Below the pieces are notes generated by a model. The model made no database searches, was not told the origin of the DNA, and saw only the letters and a list, made by a program, of their open reading frames with translations. From Candidatus Spechtbacteria bacterium (lineage in GTDB: Bacteria; Patescibacteriota; Minisyncoccia; Spechtbacterales; JACPHP01): a stretch of 64,000 nucleotides of DNA. The DNA is taken from positions 2,846-66,845 of the forward strand of contig JACPHP010000013.1 in the NCBI GenBank assembly GCA_016188605.1. The letters are read 5' to 3'. Both the position numbers and the translations under genes were made by a program. How positions within the stretch are numbered: position 1 is the stretch's first letter; each line of letters opens with the position of its first letter. Shown here piece by piece: positions 16,601 to 57,060 of this stretch.

Positions 16601-16720
16601 TCAATCTAAAATCTTAAATGGCAAATCTCAAAACTGAATCTTAAAACTCAAATCTTCGCTAGTAGTTTTACGATTTACGTTTTAGTTTTGAGATTTTAGT
16701 TTTGAGTTTTAACATTTTTT
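16601..16720. repeat. AT-rich word palindrome, CAAATCTCAAAT family
   Basis: Left arm A-rich (AATCTTAAATGGCAAATCTCAAAACTGAATCTTAAAACTCAAATCTTC). Right arm is its T-rich complement. Confidence 0.8.
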
Positions 16721-16723
16721 ACA

Positions 16724-17335
16724 ATGTTTCCAAAACCAATCCAACAGCTCATAGAGCAATTAAGCGAACTTCCCGGCGTAGGGCCGCGGCAAGCGGCTCG
16801 TTTTGCGTTTTTTCTGATGAAGGACGAACAACGCCTGACATCATTACAGAACTCATTGCGGACACTACAAAACGAGATTGCTTTATGCGCTAACTGTTAT
16901 CTTCCTCACGAAAGAAATGATCAAAATCTTTGCGCAATCTGCTTGCATCCCAAACGCAACGCCTCAACTATTTGTGTGGTAGAAAAAGAAAGTGATGCAA
17001 TGCGCGTAGAAAAAGCGGGGGTGTATAATGGCATTTACTATATTCTGGGCGGAATGTTAACCCCGATGCGACAGGATAATAACATCAAAGAGCGCGTATC
17101 TGGCCTACGCAAAAAATTTGAACAACGTGGAGTAGGCGGCAAGGAGCTCATACTCGCGCTCAATCCTACTCGCGAGGGCATGTTTACATCTCTGTATATT
17201 GAAGAGGTATTAAAAAAATTGCCCGACTACGGCAATCTTCGCGTTACGCGGCTTGCTCGCGGCCTTGCGACTGGATCAGAGCTGGAATATGTGGACGAAG
17301 AAACATTGCGCAATGCGCTAGAGGGAAGGAAGTAA
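16724..17335 (+). CDS. recR: Recombination protein RecR
   Basis: HhH motif LPGVGPRQAARFAF, C4 zinc finger CANCYLPHERNDQNLCAIC, and a Toprim region. Confidence 0.9.
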   Translation: MFPKPIQQLIEQLSELPGVGPRQAARFAFFLMKDEQRLTSLQNSLRTLQNEIALCANCYLPHERNDQNLCAICLHPKRNASTICVVEKESDAMRVEKAGVYNGIYYILGGMLTPMRQDNNIKERVSGLRKKFEQRGVGGKELILALNPTREGMFTSLYIEEVLKKLPDYGNLRVTRLARGLATGSELEYVDEETLRNALEGRK

Positions 17336-17340
17336 GCAAA

Positions 17341-17370
17341 AAAGGAGGGTCAGACCCTCCTTTTTTGCTT
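17341..17370. terminator. Bidirectional terminator built from a GGAGGGTCAGACCCTCC palindrome
   Basis: AAAAAGGAGGGTCAGACCCTCCTTTTTTGC lies between convergent recR and rplU. The same palindrome core occurs in frame inside the helicase gene at 748-794. Confidence 0.7.
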
Positions 17371-17491
17371 TGCCCTGTATTCTGTAGGGTTGCTCAGTTA
17401 TCTAAATAAAATAACTGAGTGCTCGTAATTGCAACCAAGAGGACTGCGTTAAGCATAACTTGCCCTCTTGGACAATTACGGCATCTGTCTT

Positions 17492-17890
17492 CTATTTTTT
17501 CACGGTCTTCGCGCGAGTTCTGGTCTGCAGTTTGGCTGTGACAACTTTTTCTGACTTAACTACCGTCTTCGGAACAGCACCCTCTTCAATAGCCACAACT
17601 TCTACTTCCGTGAAAGGTTGGCGATGTCCCTTCAATTTCCTAGTGCGCTTTTTGCTTGTGTATTTAAATACAATAACTTTGTCTGCCTTGCCTTGCTCCG
17701 TTACCTTGCCACGGACAAACACACCTGGCACAAACGGCTGACCAACAACAACGCCTTTCGGTGAATCGTAAACAAGCACGGAATCAAAAATGACTTCCGC
17801 GTCTTTTTGAAATTCAAGCTTCTCCACCCGGACCCTTTTTCCAGGTTCTACTATATATTGCTTTCCTCCTGTTTTAATTACTGCAAACAT
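17492..17890 (-). CDS. rplU: 50S ribosomal protein L21 (with Lys-rich C-terminal extension)
   Basis: MFAVIKTGGKQYIVEPGKRVRVEKL is the canonical L21 N-terminus. The start was moved to the internal Met. Confidence 0.85.
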   Translation of the reverse strand: MFAVIKTGGKQYIVEPGKRVRVEKLEFQKDAEVIFDSVLVYDSPKGVVVGQPFVPGVFVRGKVTEQGKADKVIVFKYTSKKRTRKLKGHRQPFTEVEVVAIEEGAVPKTVVKSEKVVTAKLQTRTRAKTVKK

Positions 17891-17953
17891 AGTATTCTTT
17901 GTACCAAATAATAAACAATGCGTCAACATCGAGAATGCGGAATACAGTATTTA

Positions 17954-19048: not shown

Positions 19049-19396
19049 CTAATATCCATTTACCGCGCGCAGCGATAGAACGCCAAAAAGAAAAATAATT
19101 TCGCAAATAATTCCACTAGACAAAAATGTTAACGATAGTGTTCTTTCGCGATGAAAAAATACGAAAGACAAAATAATGTTTATCGTAAATAATAGCAGCG
19201 CGAGCAGGGGTAAATATGAAAATGATGATGGATCTCCAACTTCTTCAATACCGCTAAGAATCGTATATCTAGTTACGAGTGGCGCATCGCTTTGTACGCG
19301 CGCAAGCAACGAGGTAATTGCATTCAGACCCAAAGCAATACCTAGAGCGGCGAAAACAAATTTATGGGAAATAAATATTCGTATTTGCGTAATCAT
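19049..19396 (-). CDS. Hypothetical small membrane protein
   Basis: 115 aa, three predicted TM segments, 4-nt overlap with rmuC. No recognisable motif. Confidence 0.3.
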   Translation of the reverse strand: MITQIRIFISHKFVFAALGIALGLNAITSLLARVQSDAPLVTRYTILSGIEEVGDPSSFSYLPLLALLLFTINIILSFVFFHRERTLSLTFLSSGIICEIIFLFGVLSLRAVNGY

Positions 19397-20529
19397 TCTT
19401 CTATTACTTGCGCCTCTTCCAGTATGCTTGCCGGGGAACCATTTGCTTCCGGCAAAGTGTCGGCGCTTCTAATTTTATCTACTACGGATGTGAGTTTCTT
19501 TGCGCGTGTTACAGAAACTGTCTGATACTGATTTTGGACAGACTGGATGCGCGCGCCGAGCGTATCTACTTCTTTGTTGTATTTTTCGTACTCATCCTCA
19601 AATTGGCGGAATAAATTAGTGATTTGGCGGATATTTGTTTGGTATGTAAAATTGCGATATGCCTGAAAAATCATGCGTAAAATTGCCGTGAAGCTAAACG
19701 GGCCCGCGAGAATAACTTTTTTAGCCATTGCTTCATTCCATACGTCATATAGCTGATCGTAAATAAAGCTAAACACCATCTCATTTGGCACGAACAAAAT
19801 TACAAAATCAACCGTGTTTTCTTCTGGATTAATGTAATCGCGCGTTGTTACCTCTTTAATTTTTTGTTTTACGTCGCTAGTAAATTGCTTGAGATAGTGC
19901 TGTTTGTCCACCTCTTTTTCCGATTCCTGAAATCGCAACAGCGCGTCCAGTGGAAACTTTACGTCAACGTTTACTTTTGTTTTGTCGGGAAGCAAAATAG
20001 TAAAATCTGGCCGCGTGGTAGTGTTCTCCTGCGCTTGCTCTACTAAATAAGTCTGTCCTTTCACAAAGCCAACAGCGCGGAGAAGATTTTCTGCCACTTC
20101 CTGGCCGTAATGTCCGCGCATTTGGTTATTAGAAAGGATAGAACGCAAGTTGTCCGTCGATTCTCTCAAACTACCCACCAAACTTTTATGCTCCTCTAAA
20201 ACAGTGGATAACTTGCTAAATGCCATTACCTGCTTTTCATTTGTTCCCTGGTTTTGTTGTTGCGCCCGTACCAGTTCGCTATGGATTTTATCAATCGCCT
20301 CTTTTACGGAGTCTTTTTTATTTTCAATAAATTGCTCTTCTTTCTTCATTTTTTCCTCAAGCACATTAAAGGCATTTTGCAACTGTTCCATCATGCGTTC
20401 ACGCTCAAAAGACATATTCCTTGAAGCTTCATTTGCCATCATGCGAACAAGCGGGCCGCGCAACGCGAAAAACAAGGCAATAGATATACCCACAGCAACG
20501 ACCAGAATTATTATGAGTTCAGTAAACAT
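19393..20529 (-). CDS. rmuC: DNA recombination protein RmuC
   Basis: N-terminal TM helix, long coiled coil, and a conserved C-terminal region (RGHYGQ, VDFVILFVPNE). Confidence 0.75.
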   Translation of the reverse strand: MFTELIIILVVAVGISIALFFALRGPLVRMMANEASRNMSFERERMMEQLQNAFNVLEEKMKKEEQFIENKKDSVKEAIDKIHSELVRAQQQNQGTNEKQVMAFSKLSTVLEEHKSLVGSLRESTDNLRSILSNNQMRGHYGQEVAENLLRAVGFVKGQTYLVEQAQENTTTRPDFTILLPDKTKVNVDVKFPLDALLRFQESEKEVDKQHYLKQFTSDVKQKIKEVTTRDYINPEENTVDFVILFVPNEMVFSFIYDQLYDVWNEAMAKKVILAGPFSFTAILRMIFQAYRNFTYQTNIRQITNLFRQFEDEYEKYNKEVDTLGARIQSVQNQYQTVSVTRAKKLTSVVDKIRSADTLPEANGSPASILEEAQVIEE

Positions 20530-20540
20530 GGCTGTTAAAA

Positions 20541-20650
20541 TTTATTTATCGCAAATCTCAAATGGCAAAACTCAAATCGACATCGCAAATCTAAAATCTT
20601 CACAGTAGTTTTAAGATTTGAGTTGTAGTTTTGCGATTTAAGATTTGAAA
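20541..20650. repeat. AT-rich word palindrome, CAAATCTCAAAT family
   Basis: CGCAAATCTCAAATGGCAAAACTCAAATCGACATCGCAAATCTAAAATCTTC / AGATTTGAGTTGTAGTTTTGCGATTTAAGATTTGAAATTTGAG. Confidence 0.8.
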
Positions 20651-21282
20651 TTTGAGTTTCTTGTCGCAAAAACCCAGAACTTATACCCCACAAAGTTCCA
20701 TAGCAAAGAAAGAATGGTCGCTGCGAGAAACCCAACATTGTCCCAGCGAGTTTGAGAAAGCCCGCCCATTGCAGGAATGTAATTTACAAAAAGAGTCGCG
20801 ATGCCAACGTTAATTGCAAATCCTAATACGCTTACAACAACAAACTGCCCGAACTCTGTCGCGCCCCCACCGGCAGTTTTATGGAATGTCCAATATTTAT
20901 TCCAAAAATAACTGTTTATTACCGCAACTATAAAGCCGACTGCCTTAAAGCCCGACACTTCCCATCCCACTACGATGCTAGTGAAAAAGATTAAGCTGTT
21001 AGTCACGCCAAAATCAACAGCTGTGTTTAATACCCCAACAAGCGCGAATTTAGCTCCCTGATACGCGATTGAAATATATTTATTCAGCCAAAACGCGACA
21101 TATAGTCCGATAACCGAAAGAATTGGAAATACAAATGGCAGAGTGTTTGCAAATGGCAAATTAACCGCGATATTCTGCGCGATAAAATGAAATAAAACGG
21201 CGACAGCTTCACCGATGATTAAAGAGCCAACAATATCGCCCCAGCCGAAACGCTCCTGCATAACTTGAGTGTTGTTTTCCAT
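20638..21282 (-). CDS. GtrA-family membrane protein (polysaccharide synthesis associated)
   Basis: FALVGVLNTAVDFGVTNSL and further TM helices are typical of GtrA. Confidence 0.65.
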   Translation of the reverse strand: MENNTQVMQERFGWGDIVGSLIIGEAVAVLFHFIAQNIAVNLPFANTLPFVFPILSVIGLYVAFWLNKYISIAYQGAKFALVGVLNTAVDFGVTNSLIFFTSIVVGWEVSGFKAVGFIVAVINSYFWNKYWTFHKTAGGGATEFGQFVVVSVLGFAINVGIATLFVNYIPAMGGLSQTRWDNVGFLAATILSLLWNFVGYKFWVFATRNSNFKS

Positions 21283-21442
21283 GATTATACGAAAAAAATT
21301 AGTTAATAATTCTTATATGAGTTCTGAATAACGAATCATGAATCGTGCATGCGACTACGCTGTTAACTAGCATTCATAATTCGTGATTCACTATTCACGA
21401 TTCAAAGTTCTGTAGTAATTATACTTCAAAACAAAAAGGGTT

Positions 21443-25764: not shown

Positions 25765-26571
25765 GTGAAGGCTAGCGGTTCGATATGTAGGAGATTGGCG
25801 TCTGCGCGTAATTCTTACGCGGTGGAAATCTCTTTTGCGGCTGAGACCATAGGGCATCTCGGCGGACTCCCCATCACCAATAGTTTGTTAATGTCCTGGA
25901 TAACCATGGCTATTCTTTTTGTTGTTGGGCTTATGGTCGGATATCGTCCAACCCTTATTCCTGGACGCTTGCAGAATGCCTTTGAAATGATAATAGATAC
26001 TATGCTGAACTTTTTTGCAGAGATCATGGGATCCCGTAAAGAAGCGGAAAAGGTCTTTCCGATTGTTTTTACGTTTTTTATTTTCATTCTTCTATCTAAT
26101 TGGCTTGGTATTCTGCCTGGCATTGGCGCGATTGGATTTGAAGAAACAGCAGAAGGCGCGGAACATGGTACAAAGTTCATTCCCCTCTTGCGTTCTTCAT
26201 ATAGCGACCTTAATATGACCTTGGCGCTTGCGATTTGCTCGCTTGTGATAACTCATATTATAGGCATCAGCGCCATTGGTATCGGAAAGCATATCGGTAA
26301 ATTTATTTCTTTCAAGAGCCCCATGGCTTTTTTCGTGGGAATATTGGAAACCATAGCGGAGGTCGCGAAGATCCTTTCATTCTCGTTTCGATTGTTTGGT
26401 AATGTGTTCGCGGGTGAGGTTTTGCTTACTGTGATGCTGTTCTTAATGCCCTATATAGCGCCCGCACCATTTTTGGGAATGGAACTGTTTGTAGGATTTA
26501 TTCAAGCGCTAGTATTCTCTATGTTAACTTTGGTATTCATTAAAGTCGCTATGATGCAAACAGAGCATTAG
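25765..26571 (+). CDS. atpB: F0F1 ATP synthase subunit a
   Basis: Polytopic protein with a C-terminal conserved Arg region (LSFSFRLFGNVFAGEVLL). The true start may lie downstream of the listed ATG. Confidence 0.8.
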   Translation: MKASGSICRRLASARNSYAVEISFAAETIGHLGGLPITNSLLMSWITMAILFVVGLMVGYRPTLIPGRLQNAFEMIIDTMLNFFAEIMGSRKEAEKVFPIVFTFFIFILLSNWLGILPGIGAIGFEETAEGAEHGTKFIPLLRSSYSDLNMTLALAICSLVITHIIGISAIGIGKHIGKFISFKSPMAFFVGILETIAEVAKILSFSFRLFGNVFAGEVLLTVMLFLMPYIAPAPFLGMELFVGFIQALVFSMLTLVFIKVAMMQTEH

Positions 26572-26580
26572 TTTAAATTA

Positions 26581-26700
26581 AAAATTAAAAGTCAAAAATT
26601 TAAAATTATAGTATATACGTCGCGCGGAGCGCGCGACACCATAATTTTTCACTTTTCATTTTTAACTTTTAATTATCAGGATAATTTATTAATTAATTTC
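26581..26700. repeat. Composite palindrome: AT-rich arms around GC core GTCGCGCGGAGCGCGCGAC
   Basis: Lies between atpB and atpE. Confidence 0.7.
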
Positions 26701-26732
26701 ATGGCTTTCAATCATAATAAATAAATTGATAG

Positions 26733-26972
<240 letters not shown>

Positions 26973-26975
26973 TCG

Positions 26976-27056
26976 CTGCTAACCGCAAACCGACGACCGC
27001 ATACTGCCACTCGGCGACGGTTGACGGTTGGCGGTAGTCGGTCGACAGCATTAGCT
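26976..27056. repeat. ACCGAC/TACCGC-word palindrome (GC-type family)
   Basis: GCTAACCGCAAACCGACGACCGCATACTGCC...GGTTGGCGGTAGTCGGTCGACAGC, between atpE and atpF. Confidence 0.75.
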
Positions 27057-27566
27057 ATGTCCGAACTTCTCACAAGTCTTCACATCGATTGGCACATTCT
27101 GCTCGCGCAGATAGTGAATTTTTTGATTCTTCTTTTTTTGCTCGCCAAGTTTGCTTATAAACCAATAATTAAGCTTTTAAACGAACGTCGAAAGATGGTT
27201 GAAGATTCCGTTGAGCGCGCGCAGGCAATTGAACAAAAATTCCAAGAATTTAAGGAATATCGCGCTAAACAGCTTCAAGAAGTACGCAAAGAAGCCCAGC
27301 AGATACTAGTACAAGCGCATGAGTCAGCGGAAAAAGAAAAAGAAGATATTCTTGCCAAAACACGTAAACAGCTGGATGTACTTTTTACGCGAGCAGAAAA
27401 GCAAATTGAACAGCAAAAGGTTGAAATGGTGGCGAACGCGGAAAAAGAAATCGTAACCCTGCTTATTCCTTCGCTGACGCGAGTATTGAAAGATTCGGTA
27501 GACGAGCAGACGCAAAAGACTATTTTGGATCAAGCCGCAAGGCGCATTAAAACGATGTACTCGTAA
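27057..27566 (+). CDS. atpF: F0F1 ATP synthase subunit b
   Basis: Single N-terminal TM helix followed by a long charged helix. Start set at the ATG after the upstream palindrome. Confidence 0.8.
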   Translation: MSELLTSLHIDWHILLAQIVNFLILLFLLAKFAYKPIIKLLNERRKMVEDSVERAQAIEQKFQEFKEYRAKQLQEVRKEAQQILVQAHESAEKEKEDILAKTRKQLDVLFTRAEKQIEQQKVEMVANAEKEIVTLLIPSLTRVLKDSVDEQTQKTILDQAARRIKTMYS

Positions 27567-27690
27567 CAAAATCTCAAAATGCAAATCTCAAATCGCAAAA
27601 CTACAACTCAAATCGCAAAACTACGAACTGTGGCGATTTTAGATTTGCGATTTCGATTTGAGATTTAACATTTTAGATTTGAGATTAAAA
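27561..27690. repeat. AT-rich word palindrome, CAAATCTCAAAT family (atpF/atpH spacer)
   Basis: Read directly. Confidence 0.85.
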
Positions 27691-27691
27691 T

Positions 27692-28069
27692 ATGCAATAT
27701 TCTCCTCGTTTTTACGCCAAAGCATTAGTTGCTTCGCTAAAAGAAGTATCGCCAAAAGAGCAGGGCGCGATTATTAAGCGTTTTGCAAAAATGCTGGAAC
27801 AACAAAAAGCGCTTGGGCTAGCCAAGCAGATTTACGCGGCAGTAGAAACAGAGCTTGCAGAAGAGAAAAAAAAGAATACCGCAAGAATTGTCACCGTCAC
27901 TTCTCTATCCGAATCAGAAAAAAAGAAAATGAAAGAGCAATTTCCCGCGAAAGAATACGAATTTACTACAAATTCCGAATTGATTGGCGGGTTGGTGGTG
28001 CAGCATGGGACGAGGCTATATCAGGCAACTTTGCGGAAAATACTGGAGGGCTTAACCTCAAGTATTTAA
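27692..28069 (+). CDS. atpH: F0F1 ATP synthase subunit delta (short form)
   Basis: C-terminal ELIGGLVVQHGTRLYQATLRKILEGL resembles delta/OSCP. Only 125 aa. Position in the operon supports the call. Confidence 0.65.
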   Translation: MQYSPRFYAKALVASLKEVSPKEQGAIIKRFAKMLEQQKALGLAKQIYAAVETELAEEKKKNTARIVTVTSLSESEKKKMKEQFPAKEYEFTTNSELIGGLVVQHGTRLYQATLRKILEGLTSSI

Positions 28070-28080
28070 AAATATAATTA

Positions 28081-28210
28081 TAATACTAAATGTCAAAATC
28101 CAAATTACAAATGTCAAATCAATGTCAAAGTTCAAAAATCAAAAATTTTGACATTAAGTCATTTGGATTTCATTTGTAATTTGAAATTTGGACTTTGAAA
28201 TTTATTCGCT
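28081..28210. repeat. AT-rich word palindrome, TGTCAAA/TTTGACA subfamily; direct copy A (5' of atpA)
   Basis: About 97% identical over about 120 bp to 29771-29900. My alignment gives 3 substitutions and 1 indel. Confidence 0.9.
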
Positions 28211-28213
28211 ACT

Positions 28214-29770
28214 ATGGATTCCTTAATCCAAAAACTGCAAAAAGAATTAGAGGGATACAAATCTCCGACCATGGCTTCGGAGTCTGTTGGTCGTGTAGAA
28301 AAAATGTACGATGGAATTGCGATTTGCTCCGGCATTGACGAAGCGCTTGCTTCTGAAATGATCGAGATTTACCCGCGCACAGCCGGAAAAAATTCAGAAG
28401 ACGTAAAAGGCGCGCCGCTTTTTGGCCTCGCGCTTAATATTGAAGAAAGCCAGATCGGAGTCGTGGTGCTTGGTGATTACGCGCAAATCCAAGAGGGCGA
28501 TGTTGTAAAAACTACAAAACGCGTACTGGAAGTGCCTGTCGGCGAGGAGTTACTTGGCAATGTTGTAAATGCTCTGGGACAATCGCTTGAAAATAAAGCT
28601 TTAAATACTAAAACCCGCTACCCTGTTGAGCGTGTGGCGTCTGGCGTTATTAGCCGCGAGGCAGTTAACGAGCCAATACAAACAGGTATTAAAGCGATTG
28701 ATTCCATGATTCCTATCGGCCGCGGCCAGCGTGAGCTTATCATCGGTGACCGTCAAATTGGGAAAACCGCTCTCATCATAGACACCATCTTAAGCCAGCT
28801 CAATGAACCAGAAGACAAGCGTCCGTATTGTATTTATGTTGCTATCGGCCAAAAGGCATCCAAAGTTGCAAGGGTCGTGCAGACTCTGCGCGAGCGTGGA
28901 GCTATGGAATACACTATAGTAGTAGCTTCATTCTCGTCTGATCCCGCGGCTCTTTGGTATATCGCGCCTTACGCCGGATGCGCAATCGGCGAATATTTTA
29001 TGGACAAAGGCAAGGATGCGATTGTTTTTTACGACGATCTCACCAAGCACGCGTGGGCTTATCGCCAAATGTCACTTTTACTTCGCCGCCCGCCAGGTCG
29101 CGAGGCATATCCTGGCGATGTTTTCTATTTGCATTCTCGCCTACTTGAGCGTTCCGCAAAGCTTAACAAAGAACTTGGCGGCGGTTCGCTCACCGGTATT
29201 CCCGTAATTGAAACCCAATCGGGTGATGTGTCCGGCTACATTCCAACTAATGTTATTTCCATTACCGACGGCCAGATTTATCTTGAGCCAAACCTTTTCT
29301 ACAAAGGCATCCGCCCCGCGCTTAATGTCGGTCTTTCCGTGTCGCGCGTGGGTGCGGCGGCGCAAACAAAAGCAATGAAGAAAGTTGCGGGCAAACTTCG
29401 CCTGGAGCTTGCGCAGTATCGCGAACTTGCCGCTTTCGCGCAGTTTGGCTCTGATCTTGATGAGGCAACACAGAAACGATTGCGCCGCGGTGAAAGATTG
29501 AGTGAGCTGCTAAAGCAAGGCCAGTACGTCCCAATGGCTTGGTATAAGCAGACGCTTTCTATTTATGCCGGAGTAAATGGCTTACTAGACCAGGTGCCCG
29601 TGAGCGATGTTCAACGCTGGGAGAGCGAGTTTCATACATATTGCGATGCATACGCGGCTGATATGCTTGAAAAGATGAAAGAAAAGAGAGAGATTACGCC
29701 CGAGATTGATGAGCTGATTAAGGCGGCAATTATGGAGTTTAATGGACAGTTTGTGACTGGAAAACAATAG
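28214..29770 (+). CDS. atpA: F0F1 ATP synthase subunit alpha
   Basis: [10 protein letters not shown] (P-loop) and further conserved alpha regions. Length is 518 aa. Confidence 0.95.
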
Positions 29771-29900
29771 CTTACTAAATGTCAAAATCCAAATTACAAA
29801 TGTCAAATCAATGTCAAAGTTCAAAATTCAAAAATTTTGATATTAAGTCATTTGGATTTCATTTGTAATTTGACATTTGGACTTTGAAATTTTATTAGCT
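29771..29900. repeat. AT-rich word palindrome, direct copy B (3' of atpA)
   Basis: See 28081-28210. Confidence 0.9.
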
Positions 29901-44460: not shown

Positions 44461-44570
44461 TCAAAAGTATACTCGCGAATATAAAAGAATACAGAATTGA
44501 GAATACGGAATACAGGAACCGCGTCCCTGTATTCTTTATTCTGTATTCTTTATTCTAATTCCCGCGTACT
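44461..44570. repeat. Word-based palindrome (word GAATACAGAAT), second locus
   Basis: GAATACAGAATTGAGAATACGGAATACAGGAACCGCGTCCCTGTATTCTTTATTCTGTATTCTTTATTC. Confidence 0.85.
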
Positions 44571-47177: not shown

Positions 47178-47278
47178 ATGCCATAATTGCCCAAGAGGGC
47201 AAGTTACTTTGTAATACAGCCCTATTAGCTGCAATTATGAGCACTCGGTAATTTGAGCTTTGCTCAAATTACCGAGAT

Positions 47279-48433
47279 TCAATATATACCTTTTTGTTCG
47301 ATAAATTCTAAAGTCTCTCCTGCGCATCTTCCCCATGTAAAACGCATAGAATTTTCGCGAGCTTTCCTTTGCATATCTCCGTATAATATTTTATTTGACA
47401 TTATTTTCAGCAAAGATTCCGCGATACTTTCTGGCCTGGCAGGGTCGCAATATATCGCCCCCTCGCCTCCTATTTCTTGCAAAAAAGACGAGGCTATCAC
47501 GGGTATGCCATGGCTTTGCGCTTCCAAGATAGGCATGCCAAAGCCCTCATCGAATGAAGGGAAAAGCAAAATGTCAGAATTTTGATAAATTATTTCTTTT
47601 TCCTGATCAGTAATAAATCTATTGATATTAATAAGTGTCGCATTATTAAAAAGTTGGTCTTGCAAGCTTGAGGCAAACGTATCATTGCCTCGCGGGCCTA
47701 CGATGTTGATGGTAAAAGATATAGATGTTTTCTCGCGCAAAATATGAAACGCCTCGGTGATTCCCTTAATATTCTTCCTCTTATCCTTACGGCCGATAAA
47801 TAAGATGTTTTTAGCTCCTGTATTCTGTATTCTGTATTCTGTATTCTGTTGCATATTCATGCCATGATGAATTATCTTAATGGGCGTTTCTGTCGGGAAA
47901 AACTCCTCAATCCCCCTTTTTGTATGCTCCGAAATCGCAATTATTCCTTTTGCATTTTGAATAGTTTTTTTAGTAGTCCAACGCAAATACTGCCTTTGCA
48001 AGAATAAATACGCCCACGGAACTCGCTCCCATTCAACGCCATGGATGGTGGCAACGCCTGGAATCCCAACCGATGACCATCTGATTGGCAGTGGATGTGC
48101 TGGGCTAAAAAAAATATCTGGTTTTATTTTGTTAACAAGGCTTGGCAAAATTATTTGATGCCACATTGGCCGATATGGCGAATAAACAATTCTTGTATTC
48201 TGTGGCAGTTTCCCTAAGGTTTTAGAAACTTCCTGTAAATTATTACCCCCCTTCGCGCCGATTGACATTGGCGCTTCGAAGGGGTTATTCTCCTCTGCAG
48301 AGGAGAATAAAAAAAACTCGTGCTCGCGGGCGCTATCTAGCGCCAGCATATGAGTAATGAGCTGATAAGTATATTCTTCTACTCCGGTTCTCTGTGATTT
48401 CAGGGCTGAGGTGATGTCGATACCAATTTTCAT
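47279..48433 (-). CDS. Glycosyltransferase family 1 (GT4-type) containing an in-frame heptanucleotide tandem repeat
   Basis: EGFGMPILEAQSHGIPVIASS motif. Positions 47811-47850 carry four copies of TGTATTC, encoding QNTEYRIQNTG. Confidence 0.7.
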   Translation of the reverse strand: MKIGIDITSALKSQRTGVEEYTYQLITHMLALDSAREHEFFLFSSAEENNPFEAPMSIGAKGGNNLQEVSKTLGKLPQNTRIVYSPYRPMWHQIILPSLVNKIKPDIFFSPAHPLPIRWSSVGIPGVATIHGVEWERVPWAYLFLQRQYLRWTTKKTIQNAKGIIAISEHTKRGIEEFFPTETPIKIIHHGMNMQQNTEYRIQNTGAKNILFIGRKDKRKNIKGITEAFHILREKTSISFTINIVGPRGNDTFASSLQDQLFNNATLININRFITDQEKEIIYQNSDILLFPSFDEGFGMPILEAQSHGIPVIASSFLQEIGGEGAIYCDPARPESIAESLLKIMSNKILYGDMQRKARENSMRFTWGRCAGETLEFIEQKGIY

Positions 48434-48449: not shown

Positions 48450-48640
48450 TTATCTTATCTTAAAACGCAAATCTAAAATGGCAAAACTAAATCTCAAAAT
48501 TCTCAGCCAAAGGCTGATCCCCGCCAGAGGCGGGCAGGCGCCTCTGGCGGAAAAACTTTTAATCTGACGTCGAAGATTTTACATTTAAGATTTAGATTTG
48601 AGATTTGCCATTTGAGATTTAAGATAATAACTGATTCTAT
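48450..48640. repeat. Composite element (AT-word arms, TCAGCCAAAGGCTGA, core hairpin CCGCCAGAGGCG-GGCAG-GCGCCTCTGGCGG); 3' of the second mreB
   Basis: Read directly. Core is identical to 49716-49760 and to the reverse complement of 39010-39050. Confidence 0.9.
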
Positions 48641-49650
48641 TTGCGTGCCATGACGCTTCGTTTGTATATTTCAAGATTTTCAAGCGCGATGCCAGTACCT
48701 TTCACCACGCAGAGCAAAGGTTCCTCAGCGATATAGGCGGGAACACCGGTTGCTTCCGCAAGCAGCGCGTCAATGTTGCGCAGCATTGCTCCACCTCCGG
48801 AAATAATCATGCCGCGATCCATCACGTCTGCTGAAAGTTCCGGTGGTGTTTCACGGAGCACAGATTTCACAGCATTTATAATTTCTTTCATCTGTTCTGA
48901 TATTGCAAAAGTAATTTCATTTGATTTTATGTCCACAATTCTAGGCAGACCCGTCACAAGATCTCTCCCGCGAACTTCATAATGTTCTTCTTTTTTCTGC
49001 GGCACCGCGGAGCCAATGCGAATTTTAATATCTTCCGCGCTGCGCTCGCCAATTGCAAGATTATATATCGCTTTCATATACTGCGTGATTGTTTGATCGA
49101 TTTTATCGCCTCCAACCCGCACTGAAGCTACAGACACAATACCGCCAAGTGAAATTATTGCTACTTCCGTCGTTCCGCCACCAATATCAACAATCATATT
49201 TCCGGCAGGTGAATTAATGGGTATACCCGCACCAATAGCAGCCAAAATTGGCTCTTTAACCACATAGACAGCTTTAGCTCCTGCTTTTAGTGACGCTTGA
49301 ATTACTGCGCGCCGTTCTGTGGAAGTAATCCCGGCGGGCACAGACACCATCACCTCTGGCTTGAATAGCCGCACTCTACCACTTGCTTTATTGATAAAAT
49401 AGCGCAGCATGGCTTCTGTAACGCGGTAATCTGCAATAACACCGTCCTTCAGCGGACGGTGTGCCACAATTGTTTCTGGAGTGCGCCCTATCATTTCCCG
49501 CGCTTCCAGCCCCACTGCAAGAACAGTGTTGTCTTCAAGTGATACGGCAACAACCGACGGCTCATTTGCGATAATTCCAAGCCTAGGCACGAAAACAAGG
49601 CTATTAGCCGTGCCAAGATCTATACCAATTCTTGTTGGAGAGAAAAACAT
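48637..49650 (-). CDS. MreB/Mbl-like actin homolog (second paralog)
   Basis: RIGIDLGTANSLVFV and DIGGGTTEVAI are actin-fold motifs. About 45% identical by eye to the mreB at 39103. Confidence 0.85.
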   Translation of the reverse strand: MFFSPTRIGIDLGTANSLVFVPRLGIIANEPSVVAVSLEDNTVLAVGLEAREMIGRTPETIVAHRPLKDGVIADYRVTEAMLRYFINKASGRVRLFKPEVMVSVPAGITSTERRAVIQASLKAGAKAVYVVKEPILAAIGAGIPINSPAGNMIVDIGGGTTEVAIISLGGIVSVASVRVGGDKIDQTITQYMKAIYNLAIGERSAEDIKIRIGSAVPQKKEEHYEVRGRDLVTGLPRIVDIKSNEITFAISEQMKEIINAVKSVLRETPPELSADVMDRGMIISGGGAMLRNIDALLAEATGVPAYIAEEPLLCVVKGTGIALENLEIYKRSVMARK

Positions 49651-49660
49651 ATCAATCTCA

Positions 49661-49840
49661 AAATGTAAATCTCAAATGGCAAAACTAAAATCTGAATCGC
49701 AAATCTTCAGCCTGAGGCTGATCCCCGCCAGAGGCGGGCAGGCGCCTCTGGCGGAAAAATACCGTAGTTCGTAGTTTTTAGATTTGAGTTGTAGTTTTAC
49801 GTTTTGCGATTTGAGCTTTAAGATATAATATCAAAATAGT
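49661..49840. repeat. Composite element with the same GC core; 5' of the second mreB
   Basis: The core TCAGCCTGAGGCTGATCCCCGCCAGAGGCGGGCAGGCGCCTCTGGCGGAAAAA is shared with 48480-48600. Confidence 0.9.
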
Positions 49841-52796: not shown

Positions 52797-53357
52797 TTAG
52801 CGTTTCTGCCATTGAGGCGCTCTGCGAGCTTTCTTATATCCAAACTTCTTACGCTCCACTTCGCGCGGATCGCGGCGCAAATACCCCGCGCGCTTAAGGC
52901 GCGTGCGTAATTCATCGTTGTACAGTACCAACGCTCTAGCCGTGCCAAGGCGCATCGCCTCTGCCTGACCCCTCACACCGCCTCCCTGAGTTTTAACAGA
53001 TACAAAAAATCTATCCATTATCTTTGCTTTGCGCAATGCACCATTTGCAAGCATACGTAATTCTTCCGTAGAAAAAAACTCTGCGAACTCGCGCTCGTTA
53101 ACCATAATCTTTTTATCACCCTCTACATATAGACGGACGCGTGCAATCGCTGCCTTTCGTCTGCCGACTGCTTCATAATAAGAGCGGTCTGGAGTCTTAA
53201 AAGCCTCCTCCGCTTCGTTTTCCGCAGGAGCAACTTTAACCGTTTCATGTTTTAACGGTTTTACATCCTCTATCGCAAATGACTGCGCTACTTTTGGTGT
53301 TGCGGCGGTCTTTATGCGAGCTGGCGTTTTGTGCGTTGTTTTCTTTGTTTCTGGCAT
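52797..53357 (-). CDS. rpsI: 30S ribosomal protein S9 with N-terminal Lys/Ala/Pro-rich extension
   Basis: The C-terminal 130 aa are canonical S9 (YYEAVGRRKAAIARVRL ... KKARRAPQWQKR). Confidence 0.85.
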   Translation of the reverse strand: MPETKKTTHKTPARIKTAATPKVAQSFAIEDVKPLKHETVKVAPAENEAEEAFKTPDRSYYEAVGRRKAAIARVRLYVEGDKKIMVNEREFAEFFSTEELRMLANGALRKAKIMDRFFVSVKTQGGGVRGQAEAMRLGTARALVLYNDELRTRLKRAGYLRRDPREVERKKFGYKKARRAPQWQKR

Positions 53358-53363
53358 AATCCT

Positions 53364-53732
53364 TTATTTCTTTATAGTTAAACGCTTCATCCTGTCGTTT
53401 CGCAATTTATTTTTCGGAAGCATTCCATATACTGCGCGCTTCAAAACATCTGCCGGATCTTTCTGCCAAAGCTCTGTCAATGAACGTGTTTTTAAACCAC
53501 CGGGATAACGGCTGTGATGATAATATAGTTTGTCTGTCATTTTTTTCCCCGTTACTTCCACTTCTTTCACGTTTTCAATTTCTACCGCATGACCTTCGTC
53601 TTTGTTTGGCATCCAGGTAGCCTTATCTTTGCCTTGTAGCAAAACAGCGACTTCAGTTGCGAGCCTTCCGAGCGTTTTGCCTTTTGCGTCAATCACAATC
53701 GGCGATTCAGTTGTTGCTTTTATGATTTTCAT
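53364..53732 (-). CDS. rplM: 50S ribosomal protein L13
   Basis: WIVIDAKGKTLGRLATEVA-type N-terminus and a YHHSRYPGGLK-like region. Length is 122 aa. Confidence 0.9.
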   Translation of the reverse strand: MKIIKATTESPIVIDAKGKTLGRLATEVAVLLQGKDKATWMPNKDEGHAVEIENVKEVEVTGKKMTDKLYYHHSRYPGGLKTRSLTELWQKDPADVLKRAVYGMLPKNKLRNDRMKRLTIKK

Positions 53733-53806
53733 GTTGATTACTGCCGATCGCCTACCGACTACCGTCGTTAAGCGGTTTGCGGTAGACGGTAAGCGGTAGT
53801 CAATTA
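53733..53806. repeat. ACCGAC/TACCGC-word palindrome (rplM/rplQ spacer)
   Basis: CTGCCGATCGCCTACCGACTACCGTCG ... GCGGTAGACGGTAAGCGGTAGTC. Confidence 0.75.
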
Positions 53807-54154
53807 TTATACAAATTCAATAATAGCTCGAAGGGCTGAATCTCCCTTGCGCGGTTCGCGCTTCGTAATTCTGGTATACCCTCCGTTTCGTTCCATATAG
53901 CGTGGCGCTACAACATCTACAAGATGCTTCGCCGTTTCCGCTGTAAGAAATTTACGTATAACTCGACGATTTGCCACAGAACCAGTTCGAGCTCTTGTTA
54001 TCAATCTCTCTACAACAGGACGAATTTCTTTTGCTCTCACTTCGGTTGTAGTTATTTTTTCATGCAAAATAAGCGACTCCGCCAAGCTCTTAATAAGTTG
54101 GCTACGCGCATCTCTCTTCAAGCTCATTTTTCGTCCCTTTTTATTCTTAGCCAT
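53807..54154 (-). CDS. rplQ: 50S ribosomal protein L17
   Basis: LKRDARSQLIKSLAESLILHEKITTTEVRAKEIRPVVERLIT is L17. Start trimmed to an internal Met. Confidence 0.85.
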   Translation of the reverse strand: MAKNKKGRKMSLKRDARSQLIKSLAESLILHEKITTTEVRAKEIRPVVERLITRARTGSVANRRVIRKFLTAETAKHLVDVVAPRYMERNGGYTRITKREPRKGDSALRAIIEFV

Positions 54155-54159
54155 ATTTA

Positions 54160-54221
54160 TTACTGCTGACCGCATACCGTCAACCGACTACTGTCGTCGG
54201 TAAACGGTTGTCGGTTAGCTG
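54160..54221. repeat. ACCGAC/TACCGC-word palindrome (rplQ/rpoA spacer)
   Basis: CTGCTGACCGCATACCGTCAACCGACTACTGTCGTCGGTAAACGGTTGTCGGTTAGC. Confidence 0.7.
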
Positions 54222-55187
54222 TTAGCTTTTCAATGACAATTTAACTTTCTTCAATGCTTTCTTAATTTCATCTACTCCTTTTTGCCCCATGCCCTCCACT
54301 TCTAGCAAGTCATCTTCGGTCTTCTTTACAAGCCCCGCCACTGTCTTAATTCCGCCCCCTTCAAGCACATTACTCGTTCTTGTAGAAATTTTCAACTCCG
54401 ACGCTGGCATTTTCATTATAGCTTCCTCGCCCCCCCTCTCCTCTACTTCCTCCGTTTCTTTAGAGGCGGCTGATTTCTGGCTTGTCTCAATTTGCAGTAG
54501 TGTTAAAAACTGATCGACAAGCACCTGTACGGCGGTTTGAAAAGCCGCCTCCGGTGAAATACTACCGTCTGTTTCTATCTCAAATTTAACCCTATTATAA
54601 TCCGTGCGATCGCCTACACGCATATCCTCAACTACGAAGTTCGCTTTGCGTACCGGAGTAAAGATTGCGTCCAGAGGAATAACTCCAACCGAAGCTTTAT
54701 CGCCCTTGCGCTGCGCTACGCTCTCGTAGCCCATGCCTGCCTGCACTTCCATTTCCATTTCTAATGTAACATTTTTGTCTGTCAAGGTTGCTATATGCGC
54801 GTCTTTGTTGATTATTTCAACTTGGCTAGGGGTCTCAATGTCTCCCGCCGTAACATCTTTCTTGCCCCTTACCTTCAATGTTATTCTTTGCGACTCATCG
54901 CCGTGAAGCATGATGCGGATAGCCTTCAAATTCAAGGTGATTTCTAAAACGTCTTCGAGCACGCCCTCAATGGTTGAAAATTCGTGATTGACTCCGCTTA
55001 TTTTTACTGAAGTAATTGCCGCACCGGGAATTGAAGAAAGCAAAACACGGCGCAAAGCGTTGCCAAGGGTCACGCCAAAGCCAGGGTATAAATCCTCAAT
55101 TTCAACAACTGTACGCATGGTATCTCCGACACGAGTTTTATCATGCTCCATTACACGTGGTGATTTGGGTAAAGAAATAGATGGCAT
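54222..55187 (-). CDS. rpoA: DNA-directed RNA polymerase subunit alpha
   Basis: GFGVTLGNALRRVLLSSIPGAAI N-domain and a C-terminal alpha-CTD. Length is 321 aa. Confidence 0.9.
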   Translation of the reverse strand: MPSISLPKSPRVMEHDKTRVGDTMRTVVEIEDLYPGFGVTLGNALRRVLLSSIPGAAITSVKISGVNHEFSTIEGVLEDVLEITLNLKAIRIMLHGDESQRITLKVRGKKDVTAGDIETPSQVEIINKDAHIATLTDKNVTLEMEMEVQAGMGYESVAQRKGDKASVGVIPLDAIFTPVRKANFVVEDMRVGDRTDYNRVKFEIETDGSISPEAAFQTAVQVLVDQFLTLLQIETSQKSAASKETEEVEERGGEEAIMKMPASELKISTRTSNVLEGGGIKTVAGLVKKTEDDLLEVEGMGQKGVDEIKKALKKVKLSLKS

Positions 55188-55395
55188 AAAAAATAAATTT
55201 AATTTTCAATTTTCAATAATCAATTTTCAATGAATTTACAATGTTTCAATTACTAATCGTGTGTTTTCAGCCATAGGCTGATCCGCCTCAGGCGGAGAAA
55301 ATTAGTTAGTTACGTCATTGATTGCGTAAAGCAACGTGGTTGCCACGCAACTATACGTTGAAAATTGGAAATTGATAATTGAAAATTTAGCATTA
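55188..55395. repeat. Composite element: CAATTTTCAAT-word arms plus a degenerate GC core (TCAGCCATAGGCTGATCCGCCTCAGGCGGAG)
   Basis: Lies in the rpoA/rpsD spacer. Confidence 0.75.
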
Positions 55396-55887
55396 TTATC
55401 TACTATAAAACTCTATTACTGAATGAATATTAACCTCCATACCCGCCTCTTCAACTGCCGCACGACCAACCACCGTCCCCTCTTTCTTCTCTTTGTCTAA
55501 ACGAATCCATGTGGGGGCTTGATGTTTTTTGAGTCGCTCGTCTAAATCAATAAATATCCCCCTTTGCGTATGAGCAAGCCTTATACCCACCACATCGTTT
55601 ATTTTACTCTGATATGATGGTGTATTTAACACTTTACCATTTACGGTGATGTGCTTATGGCCAACCATCTGGCGGGCCATTGGGCGTGTCATCGCAAAAC
55701 CAAGACGATATACAACGCTATCTAGTCTCATTTCTAAAAGATTAAAAACGTCATCTGGCTTTTGCGCCTTCTTAAAATAGTTATGGAATTGGCGTTCGCG
55801 CAACCCATAGCCATTTCGCAGTTTCTGCTTTTCAGCAAACTGCTGGCCGTATTCTGATTTTTGTCGTCTTGCTCCGCCTTTTGGCAT
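55396..55887 (-). CDS. rpsD: 30S ribosomal protein S4 (short, no zinc finger)
   Basis: LRERQFHNYFKKA...LEMRLDSVVYRLGFA, followed by an S4 RNA-binding domain. Confidence 0.9.
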   Translation of the reverse strand: MPKGGARRQKSEYGQQFAEKQKLRNGYGLRERQFHNYFKKAQKPDDVFNLLEMRLDSVVYRLGFAMTRPMARQMVGHKHITVNGKVLNTPSYQSKINDVVGIRLAHTQRGIFIDLDERLKKHQAPTWIRLDKEKKEGTVVGRAAVEEAGMEVNIHSVIEFYSR

Positions 55888-55956
55888 AAAATATAAAATT
55901 TAAATCTCAACCCTTAAAGTAATTTTGAGTTTTGAGATTTGCATTTTGAGATTTAT

Positions 55957-56409
55957 TTATACGTGTCTTACTCTCTTTGGCCTGCATCCATTATGAGCAA
56001 TCGGCGTAATATCTTTTAGTGATACAACGTTTACTCCGCGACCCGTTACTGCGCGCAGAGCTGCATCACGGCCGCCTCCAATACCGCTTACTAATACAGA
56101 GATCTGCTCAATTGCGACTTTTCCCAAGCGCTCAAATGCAGTTTCCACTGCTTTTGATGCCGCAAACGGCGTTGCCTTTTTGGGACCCTTAAAGCCTAGA
56201 TTGCCGGAAGAAGCCCAGGAAAGCACGCTTCCCTTCTCATCTGTAATTGTTATCAATACGTTGTTGTAAGAAGCTTTGATGTAAACTTTGCCGTTTTTTA
56301 TGCCGGCGACTTTCTTTCCAGCATTTTTGGACGCCAAGCCAGCCTCGGATTCATCCGATTCTTTTAATACCTCTTCTTCAGGTTTTCCTGCTACGCGTTT
56401 TTTACCCAT
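55957..56409 (-). CDS. rpsK: 30S ribosomal protein S11
   Basis: GKVYIKASYNNVLITITDEKGSVLSWASSG ... CRPKRVRHV. Confidence 0.9.
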   Translation of the reverse strand: MGKKRVAGKPEEEVLKESDESEAGLASKNAGKKVAGIKNGKVYIKASYNNVLITITDEKGSVLSWASSGNLGFKGPKKATPFAASKAVETAFERLGKVAIEQISVLVSGIGGGRDAALRAVTGRGVNVVSLKDITPIAHNGCRPKRVRHV

Positions 56410-56538
56410 AATTTATTATTTGCTAACTGCTGACCGTCTACCGCAAACCGCTTAACGACGATTGACAGTAACATGTGTACGGTTGTCGGTATGCGGTAGA
56501 CGGTATGCTGTCGTCAGTTAGCATTAGTCATTTTATTA
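56410..56538. repeat. ACCGAC/TACCGC-word palindrome (rpsK/rpsM spacer)
   Basis: GCTAACTGCTGACCGTCTACCGCAAACCGCTTAACGACG ... GTCGGTATGCGGTAGACGGTATGCTGTCGTCAGTTAGC. Confidence 0.8.
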
Positions 56539-56925
56539 TTATGTTGGGCTCGCTGACGGCTTGCGGCCCGAACCCATGGTCTTGCGAACGTTGCCACGCA
56601 CGGTGCGTGAGTTGGTTCTGGTGCGCTGGCCGCGTGTCGGCAAACCTTTTGCGTGTCTTGTTCCACGATAAGCTCCGATATCCTTCAAACGTTTAACATT
56701 TCCCGAGATCTCTCTGCGCAAATCACCCTCAATCTTATATACTTCCATTAAATTACGCAAGACATTGACCTCCTCAGCCGTAAGCTCTTTGGCTCGGCGG
56801 TCAGGACTAATTTTGGCTTGGGCTAAAAGTTTTTTACTCAAAGTCGGACCAACGCCAAAAATATAGGTCAATGATACCTCTATACGCTTATTCTCTGGTA
56901 TTTCAACTCCTGCTATACGTGGCAT
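56539..56925 (-). CDS. rpsM: 30S ribosomal protein S13
   Basis: [26 protein letters not shown] ... [20 protein letters not shown]. Confidence 0.9.
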
Positions 56926-56930
56926 AACAA

Positions 56931-57060
56931 TAATTTAAATTTCAAAATCCAAATGTCAAATTACAAATGAATGTCAAAATCTAAAGTTTAAAATTTTGAT
57001 ATTGATCATTTGAACTTGATTTGACATTTGAAATTTAGACTTTGACATTTTGCATTTTAC
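56931..57060. repeat. AT-rich word palindrome, TGTCAAA/TTTGACA subfamily, third (diverged) copy
   Basis: Related to the atpA-flanking copies. Lies in the rpsM/rpmJ spacer. Confidence 0.8.

Follow-up and report, generated by a model that had tools for sequence, protein, structure and literature searches.

Heptad-array palindromic repeats in the gene junctions of a Spechtbacteria genome segment

Palindromic elements built from short tandem words occupy many intergenic spacers in a 64-kb stretch of DNA from a Candidatus Spechtbacteria bacterium (contig JACPHP010000013.1; Patescibacteria), including spacers inside its ATP synthase and ribosomal-protein operons. We refer to the whole analyzed stretch, at its full 64 kb, as the window; all element counts, the census and the statements on gene content concern this window of one genome. 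Every element consists of two tandem arrays of a 7-nt (in a few families 8-nt) unit, inverted relative to each other. The elements form families whose copies lie in both orientations, and the same operons in relatives are compact. We consider it probable, with moderate confidence, that these elements are a lineage-specific bloom of non-autonomous selfish palindromic repeats, resembling miniature inverted-repeat transposable elements (MITEs) or repetitive extragenic palindromes (REPs), that spread by copying. A preliminary description of this DNA had offered four roles for the elements, and its interpretation is partly supported: the MITE-like selfish role is the best fit among the four, given the identity of copies, their occurrence in both orientations, the compact junctions of relatives and the turnover described below.

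Census, placement and architecture of the elements

An ungapped palindrome scan returned 34 palindromes scoring at least 14 in the window and none in three shuffles of it (shuffle maximum 13.5). Nearly all of the 34 fall in non-coding DNA, which makes up 12% of the window. Word-array palindromes number about 27; they measure 46-193 nt and together comprise 3.0 kb, equal to 4.7% of the window and to about 40% of the non-coding DNA in it. Roughly 23 of them lie within 16601-57060, an interval for which the preliminary description had counted more than 30 palindromic spacers of 60-180 bp; elements also occur outside it, at 2886-2974, 3441-3548, 8497-8590 and 61233-61347. The initial observation is partly confirmed, with these figures corrected, and the word families named at that time are present. 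The density is indeed unusual. As a further correction, several spacers hold other features, namely canonical terminators (at the convergent gene ends 4381, 17334, 33346, 36397 and 52748) or plain hairpins (41431-41495 and 47244-47276).

The genes that host the densest series of elements were identified by Pfam as atpB-atpE-atpF-atpH-atpA-atpG-atpD-atpC (+ strand, 25765-32753) and rpsM-rpsK-rpsD-rpoA-rplQ-rplM-rpsI (- strand, 52797-56925), with rpmJ and infA immediately upstream of rpsM; these are the identities first proposed. The rest of the approximately 60 annotated genes are ordinary housekeeping genes. Each atp junction, from atpB through the gene that follows atpC, holds one element, as does each junction in the series rpmJ-rpsM-rpsK-rpsD-rpoA-rplQ-rplM. 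The earlier claim for the atpF-H-A-G-D-C and rpsM-to-rplM junctions is therefore borne out, and it extends to atpB-atpE, atpE-atpF and rpmJ-rpsM. The rplM-rpsI junction, which is only 6 nt long, has no element. The foot of the hairpin is 0-3 nt from the upstream stop codon and 5-25 nt ahead of the next start, and at 2960, 20530, 32753 and 44536 elements overlap the ends of genes or provide their stop codons. An assembly artefact is ruled out, as six independent short-read assemblies reproduce 29866-32428 with zero differences. Short-read assemblies do break inside the multi-copy, AT-rich elements.

The internal organization of the elements is regular. In AT-rich as in GC-rich families, base autocorrelation peaks at lags of 7 and 14 (0.45-0.6), whereas coding DNA is flat (0.25-0.29). 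The unit is thus 7 nt long, not 10-12 nt as had been proposed; a few families have an 8-nt unit (35613-35689 and, in part, 42623-42712). Each unit consists of an invariant core of 4-5 nt and 2-3 variable positions, as in CAAAT-nn (families F1 and F2), ACCG-nnn (F3), ACGAAT-n (F4), AGAATAC (F5), CAATG-nn and CAATTTT, and at least eight core words coexist in the window. Between the arms of an element, core positions are complementary in 227 of 227 cases and variable positions in 64%. Most elements have a GC content of 20-35%. Composition differs between the arms: 23 of 27 elements have an A+C-rich, G-poor 5' arm and a G+T-rich 3' arm, a polarity that is the same on either strand given the palindromic layout.

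Folding of the sense RNA, a check that the preliminary description had proposed, was carried out for 18 elements. All 18 fold far more stably than expected from 200 dinucleotide-preserving shuffles of each (z = -3.2 to -11.4), and for 17 of them none of the 200 shuffles folds equally well. The minimum-free-energy structure often accounts for only 1-6% of the ensemble, and the arms can therefore pair in several registers.

Elements can also be nested. A GC-rich module of about 58 nt, comprising two hairpins (TCAGCCnnAGGCTGA-TCCCCGCCAGAGGCG-GGCAGG-CGCCTCTGGCGG), is conserved at the apex of three F1-type elements (38934-39107, 48455-48630 and 49652-49826), and a variant of it lies in one CAATTTT-type element (55198-55390). 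All three full composites of F1 and core flank the mreB paralogs (39103-40155 and 48637-49650). The proteins encoded by these paralogs are only 52% identical, whereas two of the flanking composites are 92% identical and mutually inverted; therefore, these two arrived independently. Further copies of the core motif (CTGCCCGCCTCTGGCG) are found at 4296-4345, where two stand in tandem at the 3' end of an LplA-like gene (3610-4359), and at 8236-8294, in the divergent spacer upstream of an E1 dehydrogenase gene.

The elements of the window are as follows; no strand is assigned except where one is given.

2886-2974: F4 palindrome (ACGAAT words) between an addA-like gene and gene 2960-3385, overlapping the latter's stop codon; z = -11.4
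3441-3548: GAATTTY-word palindrome, divergent spacer; lag-7 maximum 0.71
8497-8590: F5 palindrome (AGAATAC words), divergent spacer
13845-13885 (approximate), + strand: direct-only heptad array (CATTGTT-like) just 5' of dnaB, no inverted partner; lag-7 maximum 0.74
16598-16721: F1 element (CAAATCT heptads), dnaB-recR spacer, starting at the dnaB stop codon; z = -5.2
20548-20669: F1 element 3' of a gtrA-like gene, providing that gene's final codons and stop
21320-21395: GAATC/ACGAAT-word palindrome
26572-26678: AAAAGTC/AAAAATT-word palindrome with an apex GC hairpin (CGTCGCGCG...CGCGCGACA), atpB-atpE junction; z = -6.4
26975-27055: F3 element (ACCGCAT/ACCGACT heptads), atpE-atpF junction
27565-27686: F1 element, atpF-atpH junction; z = -6.0
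28087-28204: F2 element (CAAATGT/TGTCAAA heptads), atpH-atpA junction
29769-29900: F2 element, atpA-atpG junction, 96% identical to 28087-28204; short-read unitigs break within it
30886-30985: F3 element with a perfect outer stem of 19 bp, atpG-atpD junction; z = -8.7
32394-32511: F1 element, atpD-atpC junction
32745-32863: F1 element, junction of atpC and a carbonic-anhydrase-like gene, 96.6% identical to 32394-32511; overlaps the atpC stop codon
35613-35689: CATTGCTC-word palindrome with an 8-nt unit, within a doubtful 93-aa open reading frame (ORF)
38934-39107: composite of F1-type arms and a nested GC-rich core (39000-39058), 3' of mreB-1
42623-42712: F4 palindrome (ACGAAT words) between an rseP-like gene and frr
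43266-43315: short F1 fragment, one arm plus
44482-44558: F5 palindrome (AGAATAC words), providing the holB stop codon; z = -8.1
48455-48630: composite of F1 arms and a GC-rich core (48502-48560), 3' of mreB-2; 92% identical to 38934-39107, inverted
49652-49826: composite of F1 arms and a GC-rich core (49706-49762), 5' of mreB-2
53733-53806: F3 element, rplQ-rplM junction
54162-54226: short F3 element, rpoA-rplQ junction
55198-55390: palindrome of CAATTTT words, rpsD-rpoA junction; includes a variant GC core (TCAGCCATAGGCTGATCCGCCTCAGGCGGAG, about 55267-55297) and another hairpin at the center
55886-55956: short F1 element, rpsK-rpsD junction
56421-56527: F3 element, rpsM-rpsK junction; z = -6.1
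56937-57050: F2 element, rpmJ-rpsM junction
61233-61347: CCAATGA-word palindrome between tRNA-Tyr and typA

The doubtful ORF in this list (35583-35864), for which Pfam returns no match, is probably not a gene. Its sequence also overlaps the beginning of a GreA-like gene (35830-36372).

Units of 7-8 nt in direct and inverted array could serve as sub-sites for a DNA- or RNA-binding protein, for example a nucleoid protein, a transposase with many subterminal sites, a cold-shock-type single-strand binder or Rho. The strict heptad periodicity of all families regardless of composition would accord with such a role, as would the invariant, fully complementary cores beside the far less complementary variable positions, the shared A+C-rich, G-poor character of most 5' arms, and the retention of the F1 consensus across very divergent hosts. 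However, at least eight core words in one small genome would require many specificities, no candidate binder is encoded beside the elements, their positions are not conserved between relatives, and some families have 8-nt units. We regard protein binding as a distinctly unlikely reason for the elements. The omega repressor arrays of pSM19035 also consist of contiguous 7-bp units, direct and inverted, but those arrays are few, use one word, lie in plasmid promoter regions and have a known ribbon-helix-helix binder, whereas the arrays in the window are counted in dozens, are chromosomal and use many words.

Copies, relatives and turnover

Copies at separate loci are 80-97% identical, and for each pair a single orientation gives the best match. 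Within one copy, complementarity between the two arms reaches only 65-75%. Copies thus resemble one another more closely than their own arms match each other, so the mismatches have been inherited, not corrected. The closest pairs are 32398 and 32754 (96.6% identity), 28070 and 29771 (96%), and 38942 and 48434 (92%); the members of the last pair are mutually inverted between same-strand genes. A profile of F1 recovers full-length copies of 115-130 nt, of which six are oriented in the sense of transcription and four against it. The F2 profile also matches F1 copies, a result that fits a relatedness of the two families.

These data bear on whether movement is needed at all. Each palindrome could instead have been made in its own spacer by replication slippage together with snap-back or template-switch break repair, with similar words arising convergently in AT-rich DNA. 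Such an origin would accommodate the unit-number polymorphism between samples described below, the direct-only arrays (about 13845-13885 and the CTATTGYT arrays of another lineage), the fact that the most similar copies are neighbors, and the low ensemble frequency of the best fold with its several pairing registers. It does not sit well with collinear identity of 92-97% over 87-161 nt that includes the non-periodic apex, at loci as much as 10 kb apart and in opposite orientation. Nor does it readily explain full-length profile matches in unrelated organisms (E about 1e-15) or a conserved GC core in different arm contexts. Slippage accounts for growth, not dispersal, and we find a purely local origin very improbable.

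The same operons in other bacteria argue that the elements were inserted. In the window, the atp junctions span 85-173 nt each. In L091, a Spechtbacterales relative with 52% AtpG identity, they span -10 to +17 nt, and the F-H-A-G-D-C junctions of about a dozen other Patescibacteria span 0-48 nt. Since these junctions are compact in relatives, the window elements are insertions, and the window therefore represents a lineage-specific bloom into ancestrally compact operons. Strongly 7-periodic spacers make up 18 of 42 (43%) in the window, compared with 11 of 305 (4%) in 44 other Patescibacteria loci and 7 of 269 (3%) in Chloroflexi loci. An intermediate state is seen in a relative at 52% identity (L089/L090), which has similar palindromes with different words at the B-E, E-F and G-D junctions. 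Its atpD-atpC spacer carries (AGCTTGA)5 in one sample and (AGCTTGA)3 in the other, although the two encode identical AtpG, which indicates slippage by whole units.

Elements of the F1 family are not confined to the window. A scan of metagenome contigs with an F1 word of 18 specified bases matched at least 120 stretches; about 20 of the matches listed fall in 7-periodic spacers, most of them palindromic. On those contigs, which come from many environments, the F1 profile identified full-length elements of 115-130 nt (E down to 1e-17), and these sit between housekeeping genes such as ksgA, pth, rpoC, rsmI and rpoA/rplQ. When these loci were searched with profiles of F2, F3, F4, F5 and the GC core, no copy beyond the window came to light; as the loci were gathered with the F1 pattern, this absence says little.

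One F1-bearing locus, L193, contains the same ribosomal-protein operon in a distant member of the Patescibacteria. Its ribosomal proteins are 39-55% identical to those of the window, and the named groups closest to it, at about 50-55% RpoA identity, are Torokbacteria, Portnoybacteria and Doudnabacteria. Its F1 copy has an AGAATCT-word palindrome nested at the apex. A second locus, L221, allows turnover to be observed directly, as its genes rpsK-rpsD-rpoA-rplQ-rplM-rpsI are 90-95% identical in nucleotide sequence to those of L193. An indel of 93 nt separates the two rpsK-rpsD spacers and one of 27 nt the rpsD-rpoA spacers, and the rpoA-rplQ spacer and the spacer downstream of rpsI hold wholly different word families. 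Elements are thus missing or replaced in four spacers, and it follows that the turnover of elements by gain, loss and replacement far outpaces gene divergence. The comparison of orthologous spacers suggested in the preliminary description therefore yielded the presence/absence polymorphism expected of mobile elements, but no convincing target-site duplication. A third locus, L222, is from the same strain as L221 (5 mismatches), and their comparison provides no information on slippage.

Four spacers of L221 (3195-3250, 4626-4660, 5975-6010 and 9169-9195) open with an 8-nt CTATTGYT array directly after the stop codon, and this array also occurs in L193. All four point the same way with respect to transcription, a hint that this family may prefer one orientation.

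A phage source for the elements was rejected: there was no blastn match in 50,697 phage records, and the pattern matches on viral contigs included no full F1 copy.

Transcription, RNA-level function and the weighing of explanations

Strong hairpins directly after stop codons, with U-rich 3' arms in the AT-rich families, could be unconventional terminators or attenuators that punctuate the operons. A scan for consensus terminators, however, flagged none of the word-array elements, and in none of them is a GC stem followed by a T-run. The only strong hits were 33346 and 36397, between convergent genes, and these belong with 4381, 17334 and 52748 to a separate set of classical GC-stem and T-run terminators at convergent ends. 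Further, if transcription ended after each atp and ribosomal-protein gene, every spacer would have to supply a promoter, and promoter-like matches are not enriched (47 found, 37.9 +/- 6.5 expected). The scan and the separate classical terminators lead us to reject canonical terminators, the attenuator or terminator role raised in the preliminary description finds no support, and an unconventional form of either is highly improbable. Without a GC stem and U-run, the elements probably let RNA polymerase pass. Co-transcription within the operons, as had been claimed, is very probable given the co-directional genes and the absence of terminator-like features.

Hairpins that are transcribed could have a function in the RNA, either as processing sites for RNase III or RNase E or as 3'-end stabilizers that set the stoichiometry of ATP synthase subunits and ribosomal proteins. 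Known hairpins of this kind are the RNase III sites between the early genes of phage T7, the REP stabilizers of E. coli and the 3' inverted repeats of plastids. Several observations are compatible with this idea. Stable long hairpins are predicted at each junction of two operons whose subunits are needed in unequal amounts, the hairpin foot is placed closely between stop and start codons, transcription should pass through, and the genes 3' of the elements lack Shine-Dalgarno (SD) motifs.

The RNA-level tests point the other way. The more stable fold belongs to the sense strand in 13 spacers and to the antisense strand in 17 (Wilcoxon p = 1.0); RNA-strand-specific selection is accordingly rejected. 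The left arm of F1 scores 23.6 with its own right arm and 25.2 with the right arms of other copies, including those of other organisms. There is thus no compensation between arms within F1 elements by this test, and RNAalifold recovered no consensus structure from 15 F1 copies, because heptad slippage leaves the alignment ambiguous. Compensatory arm evolution is rejected on these two results. Further, both orientations occur, the same operons in relatives lack such spacers, and near-identical strains of the other lineage have different elements, or none, at the same junction. The lack of SD motifs is also general to the genome and not particular to element-bearing genes: GGAGG-type sequences precede only about 10 of 60 genes, mostly those without a preceding element, and most genes, including all atp and ribosomal-protein genes of the window, have AT-rich leaders devoid of an SD. 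The end of atpG (GGAGGcgatgaaATGA) prompted the idea of a 'split Shine-Dalgarno', in which the hairpin would bring an upstream SD near the downstream AUG. This idea was rejected; SD-like motifs are found before 6 of 32 element-bearing junctions against a background of 25%, so that no SD is left stranded upstream of the elements. We therefore consider a functional intercistronic hairpin rather unlikely. The T7 and plastid hairpins resemble the elements in that there is a hairpin per cistron junction that is not a terminator, but they are conserved in position and functionally required, whereas position, family and orientation are not conserved here. The analogy is useful for a possible consequence only.

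Known classes of structured repeat were also rejected. In searches against Rfam, only three tRNAs of the window reach the gathering score, and a search by e-value over 26500-33400 gave sub-threshold matches resembling microRNA precursors only, the best of which scored 33.7 bits where the gathering score is 90; no element belongs to a known Rfam family at that score. The recombination sites (attC) of integrons are imperfect palindromes with RYYYAAC/GTTRRRY core sites, associated with promoterless cassettes and an intI integrase. The window elements have core-operon neighbors, no core sites common to the families and no integrase gene in the window. Tandem interspaced guide RNA (TIGR) arrays are long clusters of approximately 36-nt dual-spacer units with box C/D motifs and an adjoining Nop-domain Tas gene (PMC12045711). 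The elements differ from these in being dispersed single palindromes of 7-nt units, and no Nop-domain gene is present in the window.

We propose that the elements spread from locus to locus by copying, either through transposition in trans or through recombination or gene conversion, and that new copies would often land nearby. They would survive only where no gene is broken, namely in the gap between stop and start codons, in the last codons of a gene or at the apex of an existing palindrome. The arrays would grow and shrink by slippage of units, and whole elements would be gained, lost and replaced faster than the flanking genes change. Because slippage occurs in whole units, the period would be kept while the word drifts and is homogenized within an array; the common heptad is thus most simply explained as an inherited trait. 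In this lineage of Spechtbacteria, the process would have amounted to a bloom into nearly all junctions of operons that are compact in relatives. Read-through would place long, register-slippery hairpins inside polycistronic mRNAs, probably as a tolerated by-product and not as the reason that the elements exist.

Several points weigh against this proposal. No transposase, REP-associated tyrosine transposase (RAYT), Y1/HUH protein, integrase or other candidate mobilizing gene was found by Pfam among the approximately 60 genes of the window. Flank alignments revealed no consistent direct repeat beside aligned copies that could be a target-site duplication; the one tidy example, a 27-nt indel between L221 and L193, has TTAA at its borders. 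A search with AtpG for close relatives returned nothing between 59% and 100% identity, and a scan of metagenome contigs gave none above 45% among the matches listed. With the nearest relative at 59% AtpG identity, there is no clean empty site for the window elements, and the evidence for turnover comes from another lineage of Patescibacteria. Further, a 120-nt consensus kept across divergent hosts needs either recent horizontal transfer or sequence constraint, and the latter would point to a function or to a conserved protein that recognizes F1. Selfishness alone explains neither the period common to unrelated words nor the A+C-rich, G-poor 5' arm. Finally, the confinement of the full composites to the flanks of mreB could be chance or a hint at function.

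A different arrangement would take some of these points into account. The inverted arrays of 7-8 nt units might be the substrate of a trans-acting system common to deep lineages of Patescibacteria. This could be a new mobilization machinery that recognizes short sub-sites in array or slippery hairpin DNA, or a host factor (a single-strand binder, a Rho-like protein or an RNase) for which the arrays have been co-opted as intercistronic punctuation in largely SD-less genomes. Such a system would explain the common period, the polarity of the arms and the persistence of the F1 consensus at approximately 40-55% ribosomal-protein identity. We hold it to be a possibility worth stating, albeit an unlikely one.

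Comparison with known repeats and neighboring features

Intergenic palindromic repeats are already known in bacteria. What distinguishes the present elements is their construction from heptad arrays, the number of families, their density in a streamlined genome and their presence in several lineages of Patescibacteria. The impression in the preliminary description that no such architecture had been reported is consistent with our literature searches on the Candidate Phyla Radiation (CPR) and Patescibacteria, within an incomplete coverage of that literature.

REPs are single GC-rich hairpins of 20-40 nt, and the associated RAYT gene is typically flanked by them. Like REPs and the bacterial interspersed mosaic elements (BIMEs) that they form, the window elements are high-copy, imperfect intergenic palindromes that are found within operons and in both orientations, are often clustered or composite and would be transcribed as hairpins. 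In size and composition, only the nested GC-rich core (CCGCCAGAGGCG...CGCCTCTGGCGG) recalls a REP; the elements themselves are, unlike REPs, 46-193 nt long, mostly AT-rich and armed with 7-nt tandem arrays. The REP/BIME sequences of proteobacteria are mobilized by RAYT (TnpA-REP) Y1 transposases (PMC3333891, PMC8266576, PMC3733652), and REP palindromes have a conserved GTAG or CGTC tetranucleotide at one end (PMC3733652). The feet of the present elements are family-specific (ATCTCAAAA..., CTAAATGTC..., GCTAACCGC...) with no terminal tag in common, and CTAC/GTAG occurs in F1 near the apex. Pfam identified no RAYT gene in the 64 kb.

The bacterial MITEs include the Correia/NEMIS elements of Neisseria, ERIC, RUP, BOX and Nezha. 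Correia elements end in 26-bp terminal repeats, duplicate a TA target and contain a functional promoter as well as sites for integration host factor and RNase III. They had been described as far shorter than the window elements, but at about 100-155 bp they are not, and neither are the Rickettsia palindromic elements (RPEs). The resemblance to Correia elements and other MITEs lies in a length of approximately 100-150 bp, no coding content, terminal inverted repeats, many copies between genes or at their ends, probable co-transcription as long hairpins, and presence/absence polymorphism among strains, here those of the second lineage. In terms of the usual definition of a MITE, terminal inverted repeats with a small non-coding body, the window elements are imperfect inverted repeats along their full 46-193 nt and contain no ORF (bacterial MITEs are reviewed in PMC3184786). 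The differences are that no target duplication or partner insertion sequence (IS) was found here, that the whole arm is a short-repeat array, and that there are at least eight word families. As to an autonomous IS with matching ends, the window contains no transposase gene, and no F1 copy flanks such a gene in the loci examined.

A further likeness is to the RPEs, the hairpins of sponge mitochondria and the GC clusters of yeast mitochondria, all of which are blooms of small selfish hairpins in reduced, compact genomes. In these, as in the window, there are several families per genome, no recognizable transposase, a patchy distribution and an occasional reach into coding sequence. Repetitive hairpin elements of organelle genomes have been described, for example, in sponge mitochondria (PMC2800124). 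The window elements differ in being built from 7-nt tandem arrays. Further, RPEs typically lie in-frame within genes, whereas the window copies are nearly all intergenic or in last codons.

These comparisons have implications for the biology of the group. CPR bacteria are usually portrayed as streamlined, with tight operons; here, such a genome is heavily colonized by non-coding hairpin repeats. If the hairpins are indeed transcribed, they must affect the processing and stability of mRNA and translational coupling in an organism that is mostly SD-less. The elements break short-read assemblies precisely at gene junctions and thereby probably contribute to the fragmented state of genomes from these lineages. 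They are also fast-evolving strain markers. Mechanistically, the combination of many word families, one 7-nt unit and no transposase in the window is a puzzle.

Some features of the neighboring genes also deserve mention. The dnaB gene (13886-16600), which lies between the direct-only array and an F1 element, encodes an intein with a LAGLIDADG homing endonuclease domain. A gene of the RmuC family (19393-20529) directly adjoins an F1 element; members of this family restrict inversions at short inverted repeats in E. coli, but the proximity is probably a coincidence.

The window also holds palindromes of other kinds. The GC-rich hairpin at 41431-41495, with a 21-bp stem (AGGTGTCATCTCGAGCGAGCA...) and no heptad structure, has a second copy, 83% identical, at about 60599-60654 in a spacer near rpmG and tRNAs, and the two constitute a separate small repeat family. 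Two perfect palindromes, 745-791 (22-nt arms, 3-nt loop) and 1747-1789 (21-nt arms, 1-nt loop), are located in the ORF 1-2877 (- strand), in the UvrD_C region of the AddA-like helicase-nuclease gene. The first has a GGAGGGTC core in common with the bidirectional terminator 17334-17370, and CCTAGGG of the second recurs in the perfect palindrome 63517-63555. Both may represent in-frame insertions from a different class of element.

A coding sequence also contains the word of family F5. Four tandem AGAATAC heptamers (47820-47848) are found in gene 47279-48433 (- strand), in the interdomain linker of a GT4 glycosyltransferase. A change of one unit in this array would shift the reading frame, and the gene could therefore be a phase-variable switch.

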